DNA of 64,000 nt from a virus (taxonomy: Duplodnaviria > Caudoviricetes): IMG/VR virus record IMGVR_UViG_2811995254_000001, positions 11,803-75,802 of that record; one strand, given 5' to 3'. Of this stretch, positions 10,030 through 60,707 are shown one piece after another (the stretch's first letter is position 1; every line of letters begins with the position of its first letter). The notes beneath the pieces were generated by a model, which ran no database searches, was not told the DNA's origin, and saw only the letters and a list, made by a program, of their open reading frames with translations. Both the position numbers and the translations under genes were made by a program.

Positions 10030-12414
10030 TTATTCAAGCCAACTACTTTCCTCAAAATCAATTGGTGCTAAATTATTATGTCTTTGAGTAATCATTTTTG
10101 ATTGTTGAGAAGCTTGTATTTTGGTTCGTTCATCTTTTTTTGATTCCTTATAAGCTTCCAAGTTTTCTTTTCCTTTAGCAGCAATCTGTGCTAAATACAC
10201 ATCTTGTTGAAACTTCTCGTCTTCTTTTGGTTTGTTAACCTCATTCATCGCTTGCTGTTTCATCACTTCGATTTGTGCCATTTCGGAAGCGAATTGTAGA
10301 TCAATCTGTTTCTTATATTGGTAAGCTTCAGTTTCAGATTGAACTCTAGATTGAGCAGCCATTGCATCAGCTTGAGATTTAACTTGAAGCATTCTCTCGT
10401 TTTCATCTGCTTTCATCTGCATATTCTTTCTACGGCGATACGCTAAGTATTGTTTTGCTAGTTTTGGATTAGTTTTAAAGATGTTCATTGCCTCGGATTT
10501 TTCTTCAACCGAAATAGAACCTTCTTGTAAAGCAATATTCATATCTTCTCTAAATTCTTGCATAGCTTCCATTGCAGGGACGATATTGAATGTAAATCCA
10601 AACTCATGAAGATGTCTATTCTTTAAAACAGATAAATGATCATTGAAGTGCTTTGAAATTACGTTATCATATAATTTTCGAATATGAGAAGCTTCTGAAT
10701 AGTTGTAGATCGATTGAATACGTGTAGAAATCAATTCGCTTAATTTCAATCGGAATCTTACCCAAGTATCTACGATATCTTTTGTTGCACGGTTACCTGC
10801 TAATCGGTTCATTTCAGAAACTCCAACTAGTGCGTTTGAACCGATAGAGCCATCTACAGCTGGGTTAATACCAGTATTCTCACGAATTAAATTATAGTCA
10901 TTTGCCCAACTGTTCAATAAGGTGGTTATTTGATTCCCTTGGCCAGCAGGTTTTACATTTACTGCTCCAGCATCTTTGATTCCATCTTCACCAAGATTAA
11001 TTCTTTTTTTAAGTACAATACTTTTAGTTTCGAATAAATCAAATGCTTCTTGCCAGGCTGCTCTTTTAGTCCCTCCTTCACTTGGTAATTCTGCTAATGA
11101 ATCTAAATCTATCTCAATTACATCCGATCTCAACTCGTTCAATAACTGTTTAATCTTTAAAGCTGTTAACTGCATTCCATCTGCGATAACTTCTATTTCA
11201 TCAGTAAACGAATACAGCTTGTTGTTATAGATATCAAGTGCATGTGTTAGGAATGGCGACATCGCTTTGTTCATCACATCGTCATACATATTCTCACATT
11301 CTTTCCACCCATATAAATAATCAGTACCAATAACATAGTTACCTTCAAACCAAGTGTCAAATGTTTTTTCTAAAGTTCCTGCATCAATTCTGTTTGGTGC
11401 TTCAAAATCTTCATTTCGTTTAGATAATTTTACTACTTCTCCTTTTCTTATTTTTTGCTTGTACTTAATTGTTTTGACTGTTTTCCAAGCGAATCGAAGC
11501 ACATCAACCTTATGACCTTGTAGTTTGTCATAGTTTTCTGCAGGAGTCAATCCTGTATTCCAATTATAACCATATCCTTTGGCTACATCTCTAGCTTTTT
11601 CTAAACTAAGTCCGCTCTCTCTAATCAAATCAGAAACAGTAATCGTATCAACAACCCCTTCGTAGAACTTGTCATCGAAATTATTTTTCTTGACAAAAGA
11701 GTGCACATAGTTTTCAGGGTCCACATAAGCTAATTTTACTCCATCGCTTTTGTCGGTATAAACACGAGTAATCATGATACCACAGTTGACTAAATCTGCA
11801 CGAAGTTGGGCATCAAGTTCTAGCCAATCATTTGTTTTAAGAATCCAATCGATTAGTAGCTCTTCAGCAATTTCAATTTTTGGTCTGTCTTTTATTGCAA
11901 CAAATAATTCAAGTTCTTCTTCGTCTTCAGGTACAAATGAATTAGGCATTAAATCGATTCCTAATTCTTTTTTTGCTTTGTTTAATAGACCAGAGCTTGT
12001 CATGTATTTTCGATACTCATTCATCTTCTCTTCATTCATTTTAACCGTTATCTTATCGGTTGAACGAATATCAAGGGAATAGTTCTCAGGCGACATGCCA
12101 TTGATCACAATGTTACAGAATTTTCGAGCGATATTGATATATCGGAAGTCAATGTTTAGATACTTTAAGCTGTTTTTATTACTCGCTAAAAGCTTTTTGA
12201 ATTGATTAACGTCTTTCTCCCCACGAACAAACTTTCGTTTATTTACAATAGACTCTCGTCGAGTATTGAAAGCGCAATTACCACTTCCTATAATTCCACC
12301 TGCAAACCATTGGCTAGAAATGAATCTTGCCACATTAAGTCCGCACTCTTTATCTTTCTTTTGCTCAAATGGAACAAAAGGATCTATCGGTTTTAAATTG
12401 TTATCTTGTTTCAT
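10030..12414 (-). CDS. Portal protein
   Basis: 794 aa downstream of terminase; YLNID....I..KF.NI..NG, YVDP.N, IR..TGIN...DG; C-terminal coiled coil. Confidence 0.9.
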   Translation of the reverse strand: MKQDNNLKPIDPFVPFEQKKDKECGLNVARFISSQWFAGGIIGSGNCAFNTRRESIVNKRKFVRGEKDVNQFKKLLASNKNSLKYLNIDFRYINIARKFCNIVINGMSPENYSLDIRSTDKITVKMNEEKMNEYRKYMTSSGLLNKAKKELGIDLMPNSFVPEDEEELELFVAIKDRPKIEIAEELLIDWILKTNDWLELDAQLRADLVNCGIMITRVYTDKSDGVKLAYVDPENYVHSFVKKNNFDDKFYEGVVDTITVSDLIRESGLSLEKARDVAKGYGYNWNTGLTPAENYDKLQGHKVDVLRFAWKTVKTIKYKQKIRKGEVVKLSKRNEDFEAPNRIDAGTLEKTFDTWFEGNYVIGTDYLYGWKECENMYDDVMNKAMSPFLTHALDIYNNKLYSFTDEIEVIADGMQLTALKIKQLLNELRSDVIEIDLDSLAELPSEGGTKRAAWQEAFDLFETKSIVLKKRINLGEDGIKDAGAVNVKPAGQGNQITTLLNSWANDYNLIRENTGINPAVDGSIGSNALVGVSEMNRLAGNRATKDIVDTWVRFRLKLSELISTRIQSIYNYSEASHIRKLYDNVISKHFNDHLSVLKNRHLHEFGFTFNIVPAMEAMQEFREDMNIALQEGSISVEEKSEAMNIFKTNPKLAKQYLAYRRRKNMQMKADENERMLQVKSQADAMAAQSRVQSETEAYQYKKQIDLQFASEMAQIEVMKQQAMNEVNKPKEDEKFQQDVYLAQIAAKGKENLEAYKESKKDERTKIQASQQSKMITQRHNNLAPIDFEESSWLE

Positions 12415-49688: not shown

Positions 49689-49821
49689 ATTATTTTGCCG
49701 ATTCCTACAATCGGGAAGTTTTACTTATTATATTTACACTATACTTAACAATAAGTACTTTTAAGTATTATTTTAACTATAATTAAATTATTTATCTCAA
49801 TAAAATCAGTAACTTTATTAT

Positions 49822-50190
49822 CATAAAAACAGGTTTCAACAAAAGAAAGCAAGCACAGTCTGTTTTTCATAATACAATTTTCAATCTAAATTTTATTTTA
49901 TTGCTACTAGGGCTGTGCTTTGCTTTCATATAAAACATGAAAGAGGGTATAGGGACTTTTCTGCATCAATAAAAACAAAATGTTTTTATAAAAGTGGGGA
50001 CTTCATTGCAGATTTTTAAACATATACAACCTAGACCTCTTTCTACTATTTTAAAGGAAAGGAGTAGAAAATTTATTAAGTAGTCGATTGTGTATTAAAT
50101 TAATTAGGTGTAGATTCAGTCACAATGATTACAATCAATGGTAGTTTTAAATAACATTACAAAAATTAATTAATACTCCTTTCTCTTTTT
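49822..50190 (+). ncRNA. Candidate structured RNA: three tandem GAAAG...CTTTC-closed domains
   Basis: Domains at 49845-49927, 49939-50043 and 50057-50183; G-U pairs favour the plus strand; variant -7 box TAACTTTA at 49810-49817. Confidence 0.6.
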
Positions 50191-50204
50191 CATCTTCCAT
50201 CATC

Positions 50205-51563: not shown

Positions 51564-53189
51564 TTAATTAAAATGTTCTTGGATTTTTGACCAACCAAAT
51601 TGATTTTTAAGTAAATCAAGTGCTTTGGTTAATGGGTAGGTAGTCTCTGTAAGATTGTATTGCCTCATAAAACTTTCGCATCCCATTTTACAAGCTCCAG
51701 TTAGTAATCTGAATTCAGAAACAGAGATTGTTTGTTTTTCTTTAATCTCTTTGACAAGATCTTGCACCTCTAAGTTTTCTTGTAAGTATTTAAAGTTTAC
51801 ATCTTCAATTGCTTGTTTTATAGTTTCTCCGTGGGCATAGTATTTATCCCTTTTCGCTACAAAACACTTTTCTTTTCTGTTGAATAACGATCCTTCATAA
51901 ATCGTGAATTCGTCTCGTTTCTTCTTTGAGCGTATAATCGTAGCGATACTATCAATCATTTGGATTTTATGATTTGCTTGTGTGATAATTACACTTTCTT
52001 CAAACGCCCAATCGCCGATGTGAGTAACTGAACTAGGAATCTCTACCGATGTAAGCTGATTGTTTTCAAACGCCCAATCGCCGATGTGAGTAACTGAACT
52101 AGGAATCTCTACCGATGTAAGCTGATTGTGACGAAACGCCCAATCGCCGATGTGAGTAACTGAACTAGGAATCTCTACCGATGTAAGCTGATTGTGACGA
52201 AACGCCCCAGAGCCGATGTGAGTAACTGAACTAGGAATCTCTACCGATGTAAGCTGATTGTTTTCAAACGCCCCAGAGCCGATGTGAGTAACTGAACTAG
52301 GAATCTCTACCGATGTAAGCTGATTGTGACGAAACGCCCCAGAGCCGATGTGAGTAACTGAACTAGGAATCTCTACCGATGTAAGCTGATTGTGACGAAA
52401 CGCCCCAGAGCCGATGTGAGTAACTGAACTAGGAATCTCTACCGATGTAAGCTGATTGTGACGAAACGCCCAATCGCCGATGTGAGTAACTGAACTAGGA
52501 ATCTCTACCGATGTAAGCTGATTGTGACGAAACGCCCCAGAGCCGATGTGAGTAACTGAACTAGGAATCTCTACCGATGTAAGCTGATTGTTTTCAAACG
52601 CCCAATCGCCGATGTGAGTAACTGAACTAGGAATCTCTACCGATGTAAGCTGATTGTGACGAAACGCCCAATCGCCGATGTGAGTAACTGAACTAGGAAT
52701 CTCTACCGATGTAAGCTGATTGTGACGAAACGCCCAATCGCCGATGTGAGTAACTGAACTAGGAATCTCTACCGATGTAAGCTGATTGTTTTCAAACGCC
52801 CAATCGCCGATGTGAGTAACTGAACTAGGAATCTCTACCGATGTAAGCTGATTGTGACGAAACGCCCAATCGCCGATGTGAGTAACTGAACTAGGAATCT
52901 CTACCGATGTAAGCTGATTGTTTTCAAACGCCCAATCGCCGATGTGAGTAACTGAACTAGGAATCTCTACCGATGTAAGCTGATTGTGACGAAACGCCCC
53001 AGAGCCGATGTGAGTAACTGAACTAGGAATCTCTACCGATGTAAGCTGATTGTGACGAAACGCCCCAGAGCCGATGTGAGTAACTGAAAAACCATCTATT
53101 GTGGTAGGAATTACAATCTGTTCTTTATTTGAATCGACACCAGTAATTTTAATAGTGTCATGAGTGACTTTTGTGTATGTAAATTTCAT
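51564..53189 (-). CDS. BspA/TpLRR-type leucine-rich repeat protein with a C-terminal phage domain
   Basis: 16 x (SG/DW)AF(RH/EN)NQLTSVEIPSSVTHIG; C-terminal AHGET...A..D, FR.LTGAC..GCE.F; no signal peptide. Confidence 0.9.
   Translation of the reverse strand: MKFTYTKVTHDTIKITGVDSNKEQIVIPTTIDGFSVTHIGSGAFRHNQLTSVEIPSSVTHIGSGAFRHNQLTSVEIPSSVTHIGDWAFENNQLTSVEIPSSVTHIGDWAFRHNQLTSVEIPSSVTHIGDWAFENNQLTSVEIPSSVTHIGDWAFRHNQLTSVEIPSSVTHIGDWAFRHNQLTSVEIPSSVTHIGDWAFENNQLTSVEIPSSVTHIGSGAFRHNQLTSVEIPSSVTHIGDWAFRHNQLTSVEIPSSVTHIGSGAFRHNQLTSVEIPSSVTHIGSGAFRHNQLTSVEIPSSVTHIGSGAFENNQLTSVEIPSSVTHIGSGAFRHNQLTSVEIPSSVTHIGDWAFRHNQLTSVEIPSSVTHIGDWAFENNQLTSVEIPSSVTHIGDWAFEESVIITQANHKIQMIDSIATIIRSKKKRDEFTIYEGSLFNRKEKCFVAKRDKYYAHGETIKQAIEDVNFKYLQENLEVQDLVKEIKEKQTISVSEFRLLTGACKMGCESFMRQYNLTETTYPLTKALDLLKNQFGWSKIQEHFN
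52002..53087 (-). repeat. 66-bp coding tandem repeat, 16 full units plus a partial unit
   Basis: Units identical except TCTGGG/GATTGG and CGTCAC/GAAAAC. Confidence 0.97.
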
Positions 53190-56901: not shown

Positions 56902-57154
56902 TTCGACGTTCGTTTTTGGATACAGCTATTAATTTTGAAGGCTTAGCTTCTTTTTCAGCTATAATATCGACAAGCTCTTGTTTACTGTAAAAACGCCTCT
57001 TATCCTCTGATCTTTCTGCATTTCTATAAGATGTTAGTTTTCGACTGTAATTCTGATAGAAAGTTGTTGCTTTTATACCTAAAAAATCACACGCCTCGTC
57101 TAGTGTTAGAAACTCAATGTTTTCTTTGTGTGTGTCGATTATATTTTTTGCCAT
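56894..57154 (-). CDS. HTH (AlpA/excisionase-like) protein
   Basis: FLTLDEACDFLGIK..TFY...RRFYSK.EL. Confidence 0.8.
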   Translation of the reverse strand: MAKNIIDTHKENIEFLTLDEACDFLGIKATTFYQNYSRKLTSYRNAERSEDKRRFYSKQELVDIIAEKEAKPSKLIAVSKNERRNA

Positions 57155-57184
57155 TGTTTTGATTTAAAAATTGTTTGATTATTT

Positions 57185-57433
57185 CTAGCGTTTGTCTAGA
57201 AACATTTTGCCTTTACCTTGTAGTTGATATTCTATGGAAATCCCGAATGAATCGCATAATTTTAGAACAACATCAATTCCTACATTGGTCCTTCTTGATA
57301 TAAAGTCAGCCAATGTATTTGGTTCTATACCAAGTTCTCTGGATAGTTCTTCCCTAGACTGAACTTTTTTTGTTTTAATTAAATGATCGACAGATTCAGC
57401 AAAACGATCATTAATCTCATATGCTATACTCAT
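57185..57433 (-). CDS. Cro/C1-type HTH regulator
   Basis: ELSRELGI...L.DFI..R...V.KLC..FGIS.EY...GKG.MF. Confidence 0.85.
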   Translation of the reverse strand: MSIAYEINDRFAESVDHLIKTKKVQSREELSRELGIEPNTLADFISRRTNVGIDVVLKLCDSFGISIEYQLQGKGKMFLDKR

Positions 57434-58137
57434 TGCGCAGCGGTGTTAACGATTCCTAATATTTTAGCGATGTATCCAAGTCCTTTTTGAGTAACCATTG
57501 TTTGAGGTTCTACTTTAGTGATAGTAGAGTCTCCTTTTTTAATTTGTATCATCGTTTGCTTCAATGCGAAGTAACCACGATTAACAAATTCTTGCTTTGG
57601 TTCTTTGGATCCTTTAAATAGGATTCCTTTATCCCTTAAAATATTGTAGAGGATGTTTCGCCCAATATCAAGACCAAGTGATTTTGAAGCTTCTGACATT
57701 GTTAACAGTCCATCACAAGAAAAAACCTTGTCAATGTATTCATCGCGTGGTTTCATTCTCTGGTTCTCTAAAAGCAATGCTTCTTTTTCTTGTTCACTTT
57801 CCAAAAGCATCATTGCTAAATCTTTTTTAGTGATTGCTTTTAAATTTGGTTTAGCTGATTGTTTTTCTAATTCTTCCCAACGTATAATGAGTTTTGCTCT
57901 CGCTTCGTCATTAAATTTCGTTGCGATATAAAGACATTCTTTTTTTAATAGTTGGTATTCAGGTCTTTTTTCTCCTTTAGTGTCTATATAATCAACGAGG
58001 GAAAATTTACCTCCGTTAACTTTTTCCCATGCAGATTCCATCTTTCGGATTGCTTTTAGTATATCTGCATGAGATTTCCCAGTCATCACAGCAATTTCTC
58101 TACTTGACATGGTATGGTTTATTTCAATTTGGTTCAT
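57430..58137 (-). CDS. Rha-family / KilAC-domain antirepressor
   Basis: MSSREIA..TGK.H..IL..IR, Y.D.KGEKRP.Y.L; C-terminal IGRN.L...LR..G.L...P.Q.FV.RGYF...T.VTQKG. Confidence 0.9.
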   Translation of the reverse strand: MNQIEINHTMSSREIAVMTGKSHADILKAIRKMESAWEKVNGGKFSLVDYIDTKGEKRPEYQLLKKECLYIATKFNDEARAKLIIRWEELEKQSAKPNLKAITKKDLAMMLLESEQEKEALLLENQRMKPRDEYIDKVFSCDGLLTMSEASKSLGLDIGRNILYNILRDKGILFKGSKEPKQEFVNRGYFALKQTMIQIKKGDSTITKVEPQTMVTQKGLGYIAKILGIVNTAAQ

Positions 58138-58208
58138 AAATACTTATATTTAAGATATATTTAACTTATATATGTATTCACACCGTTACTATATATCTAT
58201 ATAATCCG

Positions 58209-58216
58209 TACTTTTG
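58209..58216 (+). promoter_or_regulatory. -7 promoter box antisense to the early leader
   Basis: TACTTTTG matches TAnnTTTG. Confidence 0.6.
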
Positions 58217-58221
58217 CAAGA

Positions 58222-58560
58222 CGAATTATCGTGTAATAACGATGATAAAAGAAAGCTAACACAGGCGGATGTATAACACAAGCCAGAACAGCGTTTGGTA
58301 GTAACATTGTGTTACACGTTTGATAGAGCAGTGCTTATCAGACTTTATGAAACCTGTGTTTTGCTTTCTGAAAGGTTTTTAATTTTTGACAGGTATTGCC
58401 GCCCCTTATGGCGGTTTGAAACAAAGCGAATTAAAATATAGAACTACGTAAATAGTTCATTAACTAGATTAAAACGTTTGTTTCCCAATATGTCAAGGAA
58501 CTTTAATAATCACTACATAAGTTTGTTTTTGAAAGGGTAAACTTGTGTAGTGGTTTTTGT
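58222..58560 (+). ncRNA. Candidate structured antisense RNA with GAAAG-closed domains and a terminal hairpin
   Basis: Domains at 58251-58368 and 58370-58504; hairpin 58509-58553 plus T-rich tail; G-U pairs favour the plus strand. Confidence 0.6.
58486..58504 (-). promoter_or_regulatory. boxA-like antitermination site
   Basis: AAAGTTCCTTGACATATTG about 60 nt into the early transcript; resembles my recollection of the Bacteroidota rrn leader boxA. Confidence 0.45.
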
Positions 58561-58565
58561 TGTTA

Positions 58566-58628
58566 CAAATATATACGCATTTGCGTAAAATAAAAATGTT
58601 TAAATGTTAAATTTTACTCATTTGCGTA
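58566..58628. promoter_or_regulatory. Early lytic promoter and two putative CI operators
   Basis: Minus TATATTTG at 58566-58573; palindrome TACGCATTTGCGTA at 58574-58587 and TACTCATTTGCGTA at 58615-58628. Confidence 0.75.
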
Positions 58629-58642
58629 TTAATTATATATAT

Positions 58643-59395
58643 ATGACTGTAAATCAAAAGATTGAGGAATTAATAATTAGAGAATGTAAAGGAAATAAAT
58701 CTGAATTTGCAAGAAGAGTTGGAGTTAGTCCAACTGTAATTGAAAATATCGTAGGTTCTAGAAAAGGCAAGCCTTCATTCGAAGTTTTATCTAAAATTTT
58801 AGGTTCTGATTTGTCAGTAGATCCTAGTTGGTTGTTTGATTTAGATGCTAATAATTCGGTTGTTCATGATTCTGTATTCGCTATTGATACTGAATTTGTA
58901 GATGACGAAGTAGAGGTATTTACAAATTCAAATGGGAATAAATTTTACTTGTACCCAAACAACAGAATTGAAATAGAGGTTATCAAAGTTCCTTTCCCTG
59001 CGTATGCATCATACATTGAATGTTATCAAGACGAAATGAATAGCTTTAATGGATTTGATACAATTCGTTTCAAGGCGGATCACATTGCTAAAGGAAATTA
59101 CATTTGCTTTGTGAGCGAGGGTGATTCAATGTGGAATGAAGGCGGCTATGATACACCAGGAGGTTCCGAAATTCTAGCCCGTGAGATTGGGCGTCAGTTC
59201 TGGGACAATTTACATAGTACAAAATATGGTTTAATTTTTGTAACTAAAACCGGTATTATGCACAAAGATATTGGAGGATATAATAAAGAAACTGGAATGT
59301 TCTCTTTATGCAGTAGAAACCCAGAACACAAACCTTTTGATTACCCTGCAAATGATGTATATCAGATATTTAATGTTATAAAGAGAAGTTTTTAA
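58643..59395 (+). CDS. CI-like repressor (HTH plus S24 peptidase)
   Basis: NKSEFARRVGVSPT HTH; GDSM serine and HKDI lysine; divergent from the early operon; MTVNQK start preferred because the upstream ATG overlaps an operator. Confidence 0.88.
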   Translation: MTVNQKIEELIIRECKGNKSEFARRVGVSPTVIENIVGSRKGKPSFEVLSKILGSDLSVDPSWLFDLDANNSVVHDSVFAIDTEFVDDEVEVFTNSNGNKFYLYPNNRIEIEVIKVPFPAYASYIECYQDEMNSFNGFDTIRFKADHIAKGNYICFVSEGDSMWNEGGYDTPGGSEILAREIGRQFWDNLHSTKYGLIFVTKTGIMHKDIGGYNKETGMFSLCSRNPEHKPFDYPANDVYQIFNVIKRSF

Positions 59396-59405
59396 TAAGT
59401 CAAAT

Positions 59406-59436
59406 TAATGCGGTCTGTTTAGACCGCATTTTTTAT
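59406..59436 (+). terminator. Intrinsic terminator
   Basis: AATGCGGTCT/AGACCGCATT plus T run. Confidence 0.85.
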
Positions 59437-59479
59437 TTGTTTATATTTGGTTTTTATTAACATAATTAAATAACAACTT

Positions 59480-59806
59480 ATGAAAAAAATCTACTCTTTA
59501 TTTAGTTTTTTAATTTTATTCTCTTTAATCGGATGTGCATCAGGATCTAAGCAAATGGAGAAACAACTATCTAATGTTTATATTGGAATGAGCGTTCAAG
59601 AATTCAACTCTATTGTTAAAAAGAAAAAAACAATAGAAATGAATTCTCAAAGAACAGTTTATTTAGTAAAAAAGCAAAATTGGTATGATTCAGATGGTAG
59701 TGGTAGTGATTATAGGTATTTTTATTTTGTAAATAATAAATTAGTTAGTATCGATCAGGGCGTAAAATCTGTAGATAAAAGAATTCAATACGATATTAAC
59801 AATTAA
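59480..59806 (+). CDS. Small lipoprotein (SmpA/OmlA-like), possible superinfection exclusion
   Basis: LIG-C lipobox, IGMS..E, YFYF.NNKLV; promoter TATATTTG at 59442-59449. Confidence 0.7.
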   Translation: MKKIYSLFSFLILFSLIGCASGSKQMEKQLSNVYIGMSVQEFNSIVKKKKTIEMNSQRTVYLVKKQNWYDSDGSGSDYRYFYFVNNKLVSIDQGVKSVDKRIQYDINN

Positions 59807-59816
59807 CACACACCTT

Positions 59817-60485
59817 ATGAAACAAATATTCTTTTTTTTACTATTACTTTCTTCAAGTGCATATTCGCAATGTACTTGGAATTCATTTTTCCCATTTAAA
59901 GCAGGAGATACTAAATTTGATATAGCACGTTTAAAAAGCACTAATTCTACTATTGCTGATAAAGATGATGAGTATGGACTTAGATCTGCTGTTGATAAAA
60001 TCAATAACGGATATAAAAAATATGATTATTTAAAAGACAGCGTTTATATAAATGTAATAAATCTTCAGTTTAATAATAATATTTGCTTAAAAAGTAAAAG
60101 TAATCATATTCAAGTTACATTATCAGACGATAAACTTCACAAAGGAACAGTAACCTTAGAATATGATGATTATGACACAATGAAACAACAGTATGATCAA
60201 TTGTTGGATTTAGTTCCAGAAGAGTATAGTTATATAAAAGAGTTTGAACGTACTAATAAAATCACTAATGAAAAAGTAGGAGAAGGTGTATGGTTTACTA
60301 CTAAATCTTCTAACGAAAAAGGAGAAAAATTAAATAGAATAGGAATAGGTTATAGTTTTAACTTTAAAAGTCATTGGGATAGTGTAAAAAAAGAATTTCA
60401 TCAATCAAATGAAATTGAAGAATATGTATTAGAAATAAATTTTACAGATTTAAGATTATCTAAATTAACAAATCAAGGTTATTAA
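59817..60485 (+). CDS. Secreted hypothetical protein
   Basis: Signal peptide ending AYS-Q. Confidence 0.7.
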   Translation: MKQIFFFLLLLSSSAYSQCTWNSFFPFKAGDTKFDIARLKSTNSTIADKDDEYGLRSAVDKINNGYKKYDYLKDSVYINVINLQFNNNICLKSKSNHIQVTLSDDKLHKGTVTLEYDDYDTMKQQYDQLLDLVPEEYSYIKEFERTNKITNEKVGEGVWFTTKSSNEKGEKLNRIGIGYSFNFKSHWDSVKKEFHQSNEIEEYVLEINFTDLRLSKLTNQGY

Positions 60486-60491
60486 TAATTT

Positions 60492-60707
60492 ATGACTAAA
60501 AAAGCGTTTATAGTTGGTTTATTGTCGATTTTTTTATTTTCGTTTTCAAGTCAGCAGCAAGTTTACATTTGCAAAGGTAAATCAAGTAAGAAATACCATA
60601 AATCTAGTAATTGCAGAGGATTGAATAGATGCTCGACTAGTATTTATAAAGTCAGTTTAAAGGAGGCAAAAGAGATAGGAAGAACGCCTTGTAAGATTGA
60701 GTATTAA
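60492..60707 (+). CDS. Small exported Cys/His protein
   Basis: VYIC.G..SKKYH....CRGL..C......L.EA...GRTPC.. Confidence 0.75.
   Translation: MTKKAFIVGLLSIFLFSFSSQQQVYICKGKSSKKYHKSSNCRGLNRCSTSIYKVSLKEAKEIGRTPCKIEY

Follow-up and report, generated by a model that had tools for sequence, protein, structure and literature searches.

A BoxA-like box and a predicted antisense RNA gene in the candidate lysis-lysogeny control region of a provirus from Flavobacteriaceae

Background

In coliphage 186 the promoters of the switch stand face to face, about 62 nucleotides (nt) apart. BoxA elements are placed before untranslated arrays, as in the CRISPR (clustered regularly interspaced short palindromic repeat) arrays and the suhB leader. 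A nut site, as presented in part of PMC2800207, consists of a single-stranded BoxA, a spacer and a BoxB, with NusB:NusE as its protein partner, and the part of PMC10250234 that deals with rRNA operons describes boxB-boxA-boxC elements together with leader-trailer helices. Regarding the temperate phages of the Bacteroidota, almost nothing is known about how lysogeny is set up and kept. Here we analyse a 505-nt spacer between two divergent genes, a leftward gene for an antirepressor-type protein (Rha/Ant) and a rightward gene for a CI-like repressor, in the 75.8-kb provirus record IMGVR_UViG_2811995254_000001 of IMG/VR. The window, that is the whole stretch of DNA that was analysed, covers 64,000 nt of this record (positions 11,803 to 75,802).

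We lean towards reading this spacer as a lysis-lysogeny control region that is used on both strands: a nut-like lytic leader bearing a BoxA would be transcribed from the minus strand and, in a Myroides-type clade, a convergent antisense RNA from the plus strand. An earlier note on this DNA, made from the letters alone, had placed the whole structure on the plus strand, as an RNA antisense to the antirepressor leader.

Results

A BoxA-like box on the lytic strand

The minus strand of the spacer carries a BoxA-like box of the rRNA-operon type, GTTCCTTGACATATTGG, at 58485-58501 (read from 58501 to 58485), which is the only match in the window and is the complement of the 3' strand of the second domain of the earlier note. 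The form found in the window, GTTCCTTGACATATTG, is identical at 15 of 16 bases to GTTCATTGACATATTG, the box of the 16S-23S spacer of Flavobacteriaceae, and the motif also occurs in the 16S leader. The box lies about 65 nt downstream of the only -7 box of the minus strand. A match of this quality on the strand and on the side expected for a nut site, invariant amid variation, is not plausibly an incidental likeness.

The motif GTTCWTWGACATATTG has 16 copies in the complete Flavobacterium genome that holds one of the related loci described below (L143). Seven of them have the form GTTCATAGACATATTG and lie about 97 nt upstream of a 16S gene, another eight have the form GTTCATTGACATATTG and lie in the spacer that precedes the 23S gene, and the remaining one is in the prophage locus itself. 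Among 26 sampled genomes of the family the motif was present in 16, with no match for the backwards control. The box was placed between the second spacer tRNA and the 23S gene in all five loci taken from five other genomes. Moreover, eight of nine genomes of Myroides, the genus of the host of another related locus (L141), have the box with at most one mismatch, and one complete Myroides genome shows five pairs of leader and spacer boxes with a spacing of 2031 nt. In the host rRNA operon the box adjoins the predicted 16S leader-trailer helix, and in the phage locus it adjoins and overlaps P1, the closing helix of the core described below. Because the box stands at both of the canonical BoxA places of the rRNA operons and resembles the BoxA of E. 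coli and Bacillus, we infer that it is the BoxA of Flavobacteriaceae, a putative site of NusB/S10. We also considered the box as a second promoter and rejected this, as its TTTG is preceded by G(T/C/A)TC and not by TA.

Large collections were scanned with exact patterns only. The scan for the box also led to phage tRNA arrays, in which TCTTTGACATATTGGGAAACAAAT lies directly before a tRNA-Leu gene, on the strand of the tRNA. In uncultured phages, some of them on contigs longer than 270 kb, TCTTTGACATATTGGGAAACAAA stands directly before tRNA-Leu or between tRNA genes (about 1480-1525 in L011-L013, L015, L020 and L021; also L017 and L019), which suggests that those phages transcribe their tRNA arrays in the style of an rRNA operon. 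The exact variant of the window, GTTCCTTGACATATTG, was also seen next to a GC hairpin that precedes a cellular gene on its upstream side, outside any prophage switch (L224; G406 contig 6, near 170879). Matches of TCTTTGAMATATTG in three genomes were taken as chance: the two on contig C19 of G001 fall in a repeated coding-like stretch without rRNA or tRNA match, and the one in G003 has no RNA-family match.

Conserved order of the lytic leader

Homologous loci were gathered by protein-guided and pattern-guided scans; searches with a single protein returned only two loci for Rha and one for the repressor. Eleven loci have a homologous core, namely the window, L002 (a close relative whose Rha is 97% identical), L004, L141 (Myroides sp. 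NP-2), L143 (Flavobacterium sp. JP2137), L187, L188 (the same as L175), L189, L191 (the same as L193), L192 and L194. Furthermore, we fetched 45 loci through the alignment of the repressor and sought the box, with at most two mismatches, on the strand opposite to the repressor gene. It was found in 10 of these, half of which (L153, L156, L157, L171 and L172) retain the promoter, the hairpin and the BoxA-like box in front of a different leader body. A blastn search of the spacer against the 50,697 phage records of INPHARED gave no match.

All 11 homologous loci keep the same order of operators, minus-strand -7 box, hairpin, BoxA, structured leader and first leftward gene. The -7 box of the putative early lytic promoter is TATATTTG at 58573-58566. 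As the minus strand has no other perfect TAnnTTTG from the Rha start (58137) to the repressor gene, the leader would have a length of about 420 nt, which agrees with the value proposed earlier. The first of two operator-like 14-nt palindromes, TACGCATTTGCGTA (58574-58587), adjoins this -7 box, and the other one, TACTCATTTGCGTA (58615-58628), lies 41 nt apart from it; relatives with a different repressor N-terminus have other palindromes at the same place. In plus-strand reading the -7 box is CAAAT(A/G)TA, which adjoins the operators in 11 of 11 loci, and CAAA(T/C)ATA is retained in the five further loci with BoxA as well. From the -7 box to the BoxA-like box there are 39-102 nt, with a hairpin between, in 10 of the 11 loci, and in L188 two genes are inserted. 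On the 3' side of the BoxA the 11 loci have a GC hairpin of five pairs, in which the loop is conserved and the outer pair covaries, and in L143 this hairpin follows the BoxA after 6 nt.

The most conserved signal of the region is the BoxA-like box on the minus strand, in the lytic leader, and, since this is the other strand from that of the supposed plus-strand RNA, the core is at least as likely to act in the leader itself. Antitermination is most likely the role of this leader, because a long untranslated leader is a natural target of Rho, BoxA is a known remedy, and the same box precedes tRNA arrays of phages.

The conserved core

The core found in the 11 loci (58386-58503, not assigned to a strand) is a three-way junction. 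P1 joins 58387-58398 with 58486-58496, P3 is the GC hairpin with the conserved loop at 58399-58414, and P2 joins 58418-58428 with 58475-58484 and bears a variable insert. The 11 loci have in common ACRGGTATT, the GC hairpin nCGCC-CCTYRT-GGCGn and, past a variable stretch, CAATAT(G/T)TCAA(A/G/T)G(A/T)(A/G/T)C. This variable stretch is about 60 nt long in the short type to which the window belongs, together with L004, L141 and L194, about 130 nt long with a conserved AAGGAGTTCCACC in the long type (L187, L188, L189, L191 and L192), and absent in L143.

P2 was formed in 10 of the 10 loci tested, with 7-14 pairs and by five unrelated sequences (GAAACAAA, GAAGUAAA, GGAUUG, GUUUAAA and GAGUUGC). The outer pair of P3 varies between C-G, A-U and U-A across the loci, and RNAalifold found compensatory changes at 10 of 60 pairs in four short-type RNAs and at 7 of 24 pairs in five long-type RNAs. 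P1 pairs ACAGGUAUUG with CAAUAUGUC, both sides being conserved in sequence. Regarding the strand, the core folds better on the minus strand in six of 10 loci and on the plus strand in three, with one tie. The consensus fold of the four short-type RNAs reaches -40.1 kcal/mol on the plus strand versus -26.3 kcal/mol on the minus strand, and that of the long type -16.9 kcal/mol on the minus strand versus -13.5 kcal/mol on the plus strand. The Watson-Crick changes in the core do not decide the strand of action.

The locus is a real, conserved and structured RNA region outside Rfam. No Rfam family reached its threshold anywhere in the window, and at relaxed E-values the locus gave only sub-threshold chance matches, most of them to microRNA models on the long hairpin; the DUF2693 RNA model scored 14 bits over the locus, versus 81 required. 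The same search on eight homologous loci returned one tRNA and nothing else. A hammerhead-like CUGANGA was discarded on inspection, as it is in L187 and L192 and not in L189.

Two peculiarities of the relatives concern the insert region. In the long-type loci L187, L188, L189, L191 and L192 and in the leader body of L157 there is an invariant AAGGA(G/C)TTCCACC inside the insert (in minus sense GGTGGAA(C/G)TCCTT), which on the minus strand may be enclosed by an AGGUG/CAUCU helix containing a conserved G·U pair. In L002 the P2 region and its variable stretch are split by an insert of 500 nt (1700-2200) with two small convergent open reading frames (ORFs), one of 89 amino acids (aa) that runs with the plus RNA and one of 64 aa that runs with the lytic transcript, neither of which has a match in Pfam or PHROGs.

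A predicted antisense RNA on the plus strand

In the clade of the window, the plus strand probably also gives rise to an RNA of about 340 nt, or of about 230 nt where domain 1 (see below) is missing. Its putative promoter has a -7 box of the Bacteroidota type, TACTTTTG, an exact TAnnTTTG at 58209-58216. Four relatives (L002, L004, L141 and L194) have the corresponding box, GTAyTTTTG/GTACCTTTG, upstream of the core, and L143 and L187 also have a perfect one, which with the window makes seven of the 11 loci; in L004 and L141 it is retained as GTATTTTTG amid otherwise diverged sequence. In the minimum free energy (MFE) fold the box is followed by a 5' hairpin (58220-58246), by domain 1 and by a second domain (about 58371-58503). 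By our reading of the alignment, the 5' hairpin is retained in L141 through a change from U-A to C-G plus one from C-G to U·G, the second being a wobble on the plus strand only.

The terminator scan placed an intrinsic terminator of the plus RNA at 58508-58565, which on the minus strand would be a weaker, 5'-proximal hairpin of the leader ahead of the BoxA. It consists of a closing hairpin of 20 pairs (58508-58555) followed by TTTTTGTTGTT, and the scan found four sites in this 1-kb region versus 0.4 expected. The hairpin of the window has -23.3 kcal/mol on the plus strand versus -12.0 kcal/mol on the minus strand, and it is more stable on the plus strand in 10 of 10 loci, where G·U pairs account for 34 of 204 pairs on the plus strand versus one of 137 on the minus strand; the pairs of P2, which serve as internal control, include seven G·U on the plus strand versus four on the minus strand. 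Among the window, L004 and L141 the stem positions alternate between U-A, U·G and G·U, the wobble states being mismatches on the minus strand. In L002 the stem differs in sequence from that of the window and the pairing is kept. A T run follows the stem, in plus reading, in the window, L002, L004, L141 and L194. Regarding the locus as a whole, both strands fold better than shuffled sequences, with -102.3 kcal/mol and a z-score of -5.43 for the plus strand and -89.1 kcal/mol and a z-score of -7.06 for the minus strand, and in neither case was any of 100 shuffles as good.

All the parts that the earlier note had listed (the plus-strand -7 box, the 5' hairpin, the clamped domain 1, the second domain and the long hairpin with its T tail) were found again in their places, and its remark that wobble pairs are mostly G-U on the plus strand holds for the closing hairpin, with seven G·U in the window versus none on the minus strand. 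Its proposal of an antisense RNA as a layer of immunity stands in part: the locus is conserved and antisense to the Rha/Ant leader, with the plus -7 box and the plus-biased terminator in the proportions just given. What does not fit are the BoxA core on the other strand and the start of Rha, which is left uncovered. The predicted RNA starts near 58222, about 85 nt from the Rha start codon (ATG at 58137-58135, minus strand), so neither this codon nor the region immediately upstream of it is covered, and because of this a translational block like that of P22 sar is ruled out. Convergent polymerase collision or pairing with the leader is the likely mode of action.

Two other candidates on this strand were rejected. 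A small protein gene (ORF 58295-58441, 48 codons with a TTG start) would lie mostly inside domain 1, which relatives lack, and a candidate cI promoter at 58518-58525 falls within the hairpin and lacks conservation, as it is not kept in L004, L141 and L002.

Domain 1 and the 49.8-kb locus

Domain 1 (58250-58369, plus strand) has the inverted arms AGAAAGCTAACACAGG and CCTGTGTTTTGCTTTCT, and its MFE fold is a clamped multibranch structure enclosing inner hairpins, the clamp being AGAAAGC/TAACACAGG ... CCTGTGTT/TTGCTTTCT. It is present in L002 at 96% identity and absent from L141, L004 and L194; the junction in L141 reads GAAAAG where the window has GAAAG, domain 1 and GAAAG. In a contig of runs X2/X3 the positions 58256-58363 are replaced by 109 other letters between AGAAAG and CTTTCT, and L143 has a distant version of the domain at the same place, with different arms and the same inner AGAGCAGTGCTT hairpin. 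Since three close relatives lack domain 1 and another has different DNA instead, it is an optional, swappable cassette and not the conserved working core.

The arms recur at 49845-49930 around an unrelated interior. This provirus and the close relative each have exactly two copies, both on the plus strand, and no copy occurs in a third provirus or in a Myroides genome of 3.5 Mb; a miniature inverted-repeat element is recognised by many dispersed copies, and here each of two proviruses holds two. The arm pattern AAGAAAGCNANCACAG gave at least 118 matches and, among the matches listed, only L057, the 49.8-kb copy of the close relative, closes the clamp. The pattern of domain 1, AGAAAGN{50,80}TAGAGCAGTGCTT, gave six matches, which are the close relative and five chance matches in coding DNA. 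The idea that the locus uses the same scaffold as the 49.8-kb array therefore survives only for the arms of domain 1, as the interior is unrelated and domain 1 is not the core.

The 49.8-kb copy is the first of three GAAAG-type clamped stems in a second non-coding stretch of the window, at 49692-50204, inside the leftward early operon. This stretch folds with a z-score of -3.7 on the plus strand versus -2.1 on the minus strand, and both of its strands lack a BoxA-like box as well as a perfect -7 box.

Neighbouring genes and host

The first lytic gene (57430-58137, minus strand) encodes a protein of 235 aa with Rha-N and KilAC/ANT parts (Pfam Phage_pRha, E-value 2.8e-18, and ANT, 2.8e-19; PHROG 63 'anti-repressor Ant', 7e-45), and it is followed by a Cro-like helix-turn-helix (HTH) gene and then by other early genes. 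The CI-like repressor (58643-59395, plus strand) has an HTH N-terminus and an S24-like C-terminus with GDSM, and matches PHROG 4 'transcriptional repressor' (E-value 1.2e-6). The repressor itself had no match in Pfam, and a PDB sequence search with it gave no relevant match. Its homologues are named XRE/HTH regulators, one of them 'phage repressor protein C with HTH and peptidase S24 domain', and PF00717 occurs in distant homologues. The closest of them come from Myroides, followed by Flavobacterium and Empedobacter, and for this reason the host of the prophage is a member of Flavobacteriaceae, most likely Myroides.

Some observations were made in passing on the genes around. In L004 the Bro-N/KilAC antirepressor-type gene beside the element is split into two ORFs of 99 and 117 aa (1215-1997), and its counterpart in L141 is intact, with 255 aa. 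The early region of the window encodes a protein of 541 aa with BspA-type leucine-rich repeats (51564-53189, minus strand; Pfam LRR_5, E-value 1.4e-131, four stretches), which is unusual for a replication or early module of a phage. After the repressor gene and its bidirectional terminator (59407-59430) there are three small genes (59480-60707) with N-termini like those of signal peptides or lipoproteins, which look like accessory genes expressed in the lysogen.

Discussion

Alternative explanations

Any explanation of the spacer has to account for what is observed there, namely sequence features that are conserved, their covariation, an asymmetry between the strands, and a box that is identified with the motif of the rRNA operons. 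An RNA acting solely on the minus strand, as an antitermination leader, would leave the plus-strand "promoter" and "terminator" as by-products (a chance TAnnTTTG and a hairpin with chance T's). We think this unlikely, although it has to be taken seriously. Indeed, the 16 loci all have in common only BoxA, the minus -7 box and the hairpin, the core folds better on the minus strand in most of the loci compared, and so does the long-type consensus. In L189 and L192 the element reaches the leftward start codon, with no space for a plus promoter in the spacer, and the hairpin has no T tail in L187, L192, L153, L156, L157, L171 and L172. Nevertheless, a leader alone would hardly produce the excess of G·U pairs of the hairpin on the plus strand (34 versus one), about half of the pairs of the Myroides-type hairpin being lost on the minus strand, nor the stem changes among the window, L004 and L141 that run through U·G and G·U and are mismatched on the minus strand, nor the GTAyTTTTG box retained in L004 and L141 despite diverged flanks. 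The opposite simplification, which builds on the earlier note, takes the whole structure as a regulatory RNA of the plus strand, comparable to P1 c4 or P22 sar, and regards the likeness to BoxA as incidental. It draws on the promoter and terminator features of that strand and on the short-type consensus, which folds far better there. However, a 16-nt box that matches the host rRNA-operon motif at 15 positions, on the strand and side of a nut site and invariant amid variation, the start region of Rha that is not overlapped, and the lack of any match to Rfam C4, or to any other Rfam family, make this very unlikely, and the comparison with c4 or sar is not supported.

The plus transcript could also be part of the repressor transcription unit. 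In that case the transcript from 58209 would be a long 5' leader of the repressor, made from an establishment promoter like P_RE of lambda, with the hairpin and T tail as a regulated attenuator. Promoter, terminator and repressor gene are collinear, L002 has a plus-sense ORF of 89 codons between promoter and terminator, and no perfect plus -7 box lies between the terminator and the repressor start, the nearby one at 58518-58525 being within the hairpin and not kept in L004, L141 and L002. But a hairpin of 18-20 pairs with a T run is a strong terminator, and we saw no other pairing that could act as an antiterminator. Maintenance promoters are as a rule weak and deviate from the consensus, so that a missing perfect box means little, and the position of the operators, downstream of the terminator, is the one expected for a repressor promoter under self-regulation. 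Thus, we regard this explanation as quite unlikely. Highly improbable is the view of the clamped domains as selfish or neutral DNA, i.e. miniature inverted-repeat insertions without function in the switch. The inverted arms of 16 nt in domain 1, its clean absence in L141 exactly between GAAAG-like words, its replacement in X2/X3 and the recurrence of its arms at 49.8 kb with a different interior would suit an insertion of this kind. These facts apply to domain 1 only and not to the core, though, and they meet the low copy number (two per provirus and none in the 3.5-Mb Myroides genome) and a distant Flavobacterium prophage with a domain at the same place that has other arms and the same inner hairpin sequence.

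A proposed switch read on both strands

We return to the preferred reading, in which both strands take part in the control. From the arrangement of the spacer we infer promoter activity, Nus binding, antitermination, and the expression and action of the antisense RNA, in the following way. The early promoter (-7 box 58573-58566, beside the operators) would be controlled by the repressor and would give an untranslated leader of about 420 nt towards Rha/Ant, carrying from its 5' end the hairpin, the host-type BoxA and the three-way junction, which ends in the GC hairpin with the conserved loop. The BoxA would load NusB/S10 and other Nus factors, so that abortion by Rho would be avoided in the leader or further downstream. 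On the other strand, the promoter at 58209 and the terminator at 58508-58565 would define an RNA of about 340 nt that is fully complementary to the leader, including the BoxA, and ends just before the lytic -7 box. Plus-strand transcription would run head-on into the lytic promoter and damp leaky lytic transcription in the lysogen, either through collision of polymerases or through a pairing with the leader that masks the BoxA or triggers cleavage.

A more specific form of this mechanism is possible, although we consider it rather unlikely: the plus RNA would be an "anti-nut" RNA that pairs with the nascent lytic leader and hides the BoxA, and stray transcripts of the lysogen would be terminated by Rho before the antirepressor gene. 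In a bolder variant, BoxA and closing helix would mimic the leader-trailer stalk of pre-rRNA, and the enclosed RNA with its swappable cassettes would be made and processed like a stable RNA.

Several results weigh against the control from both strands. On the side of the box, its identity as a NusB/S10 site leans on its position and on its likeness to the BoxA of E. coli and Bacillus, and we found no paper on BoxA of Bacteroidota in the literature searched. P1 would pair the 3' half of the BoxA, whereas the BoxA of E. coli is bound single-stranded. P1 also shows almost no covariation, with G·U pairs on the plus strand in L143 and on the minus strand in L141 and L188. On the side of the promoters, which are motif calls, TAnnTTTG shows no enrichment in the window (85 found versus 99 expected), and therefore these calls rest on position and on conservation in relatives. 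Four of the 11 loci (L188, L189, L191 and L192) have no perfect plus -7 box in the spacer. The missing T tail in L187, L192 and the five further loci points in the same direction, and because of it the antisense RNA may be limited to the Myroides-type clade. The core pattern matched only one of 401 genomes of the family (G001), so that the element is rare. Regarding transcripts, the only RNA-labelled run found, X1, contained 13% of the sampled words and gave four low-depth contigs, whose letters show neither strand nor ends; these contigs fall in the early genes and at the 3' end of the repressor gene (57028-57804 and 59266-59446 only), with none over the spacer (57805-59265). Finally, no N-like protein was recognised by Pfam or PHROG among the early genes. 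As this is so, and with the rRNA operons as a model (in the part of PMC10250234 that describes them), the nut-like module may work with host factors alone.

This locus offers a concrete and testable design. A host-type BoxA in an early lytic leader would be, within the literature searched, the first nut-like signal for phages of Flavobacteriaceae, and here it is combined with a predicted gene for a convergent, structured antisense RNA. The likely BoxA of the rRNA operons of this family can now be defined from genome data, and lytic phages put the same box before their tRNA arrays. In addition, the 11 to 16 loci constitute a small RNA family outside Rfam with clear covariation, which is enough for a model and a wider search. 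If it is true that the antisense RNA masks the BoxA, this would be a new way to enforce immunity, through antitermination and not through translation or repressor binding.

Comparison with known systems

The leader resembles the nut sites of lambda in the place of its host-type BoxA, which lies on the transcribed strand, a short way downstream of an early promoter that the repressor would control. A small GC stem-loop whose loop is conserved comes next, in L143 after a gap of only 6 nt (compare the description of the nut site in part of PMC2800207). With the leaders of rRNA operons it shares a hairpin before the BoxA and a BoxA that adjoins a long-range closing helix. Nevertheless, the box is of the Flavobacteriaceae version, GTTC(A/T)TTGACATATTG, and not of the enterobacterial one. 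Unlike in nut sites, a structured insert of 60-150 nt separates box and stem-loop in most members, and the 3' half of the box can pair with the conserved ACAGGTATT complement. Lambda moreover has N, a protein without a recognised counterpart here.

Regarding the antisense side, P22 sar and lambda OOP are also short RNAs with their own promoter and intrinsic terminator, opposite to an early or antirepressor transcript in the immunity region, a likeness at the level of sequence. However, the RNA predicted here covers the untranslated leader including the BoxA and not the start region of the antirepressor, and with about 340 nt it is highly structured and ends head-on at the lytic promoter. Coliphages 186 and P2 have convergent lytic and lysogenic promoters in their switch as well, where interference between polymerases is possible. 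The promoters here are about 350 nt apart, versus the about 62 nt of 186, and, unlike in 186 and P2, the plus transcript meets a terminator before the repressor gene. The c4 RNAs of P1 and P7 and the CI RNA of P4 have in common with this locus a control of antirepressor or immunity functions at the level of RNA, but they act in trans on short complementary boxes or cause site-specific termination, and we found neither such repeated boxes nor, for c4, a match to Rfam C4 or another family at this locus. Finally, as in the CRISPR arrays and the suhB leader, BoxA stands ahead of a long untranslated stretch in which Rho would otherwise terminate; here, in contrast, it does so within the lysis-lysogeny switch of a phage, where it is overlapped by the predicted antisense RNA gene.

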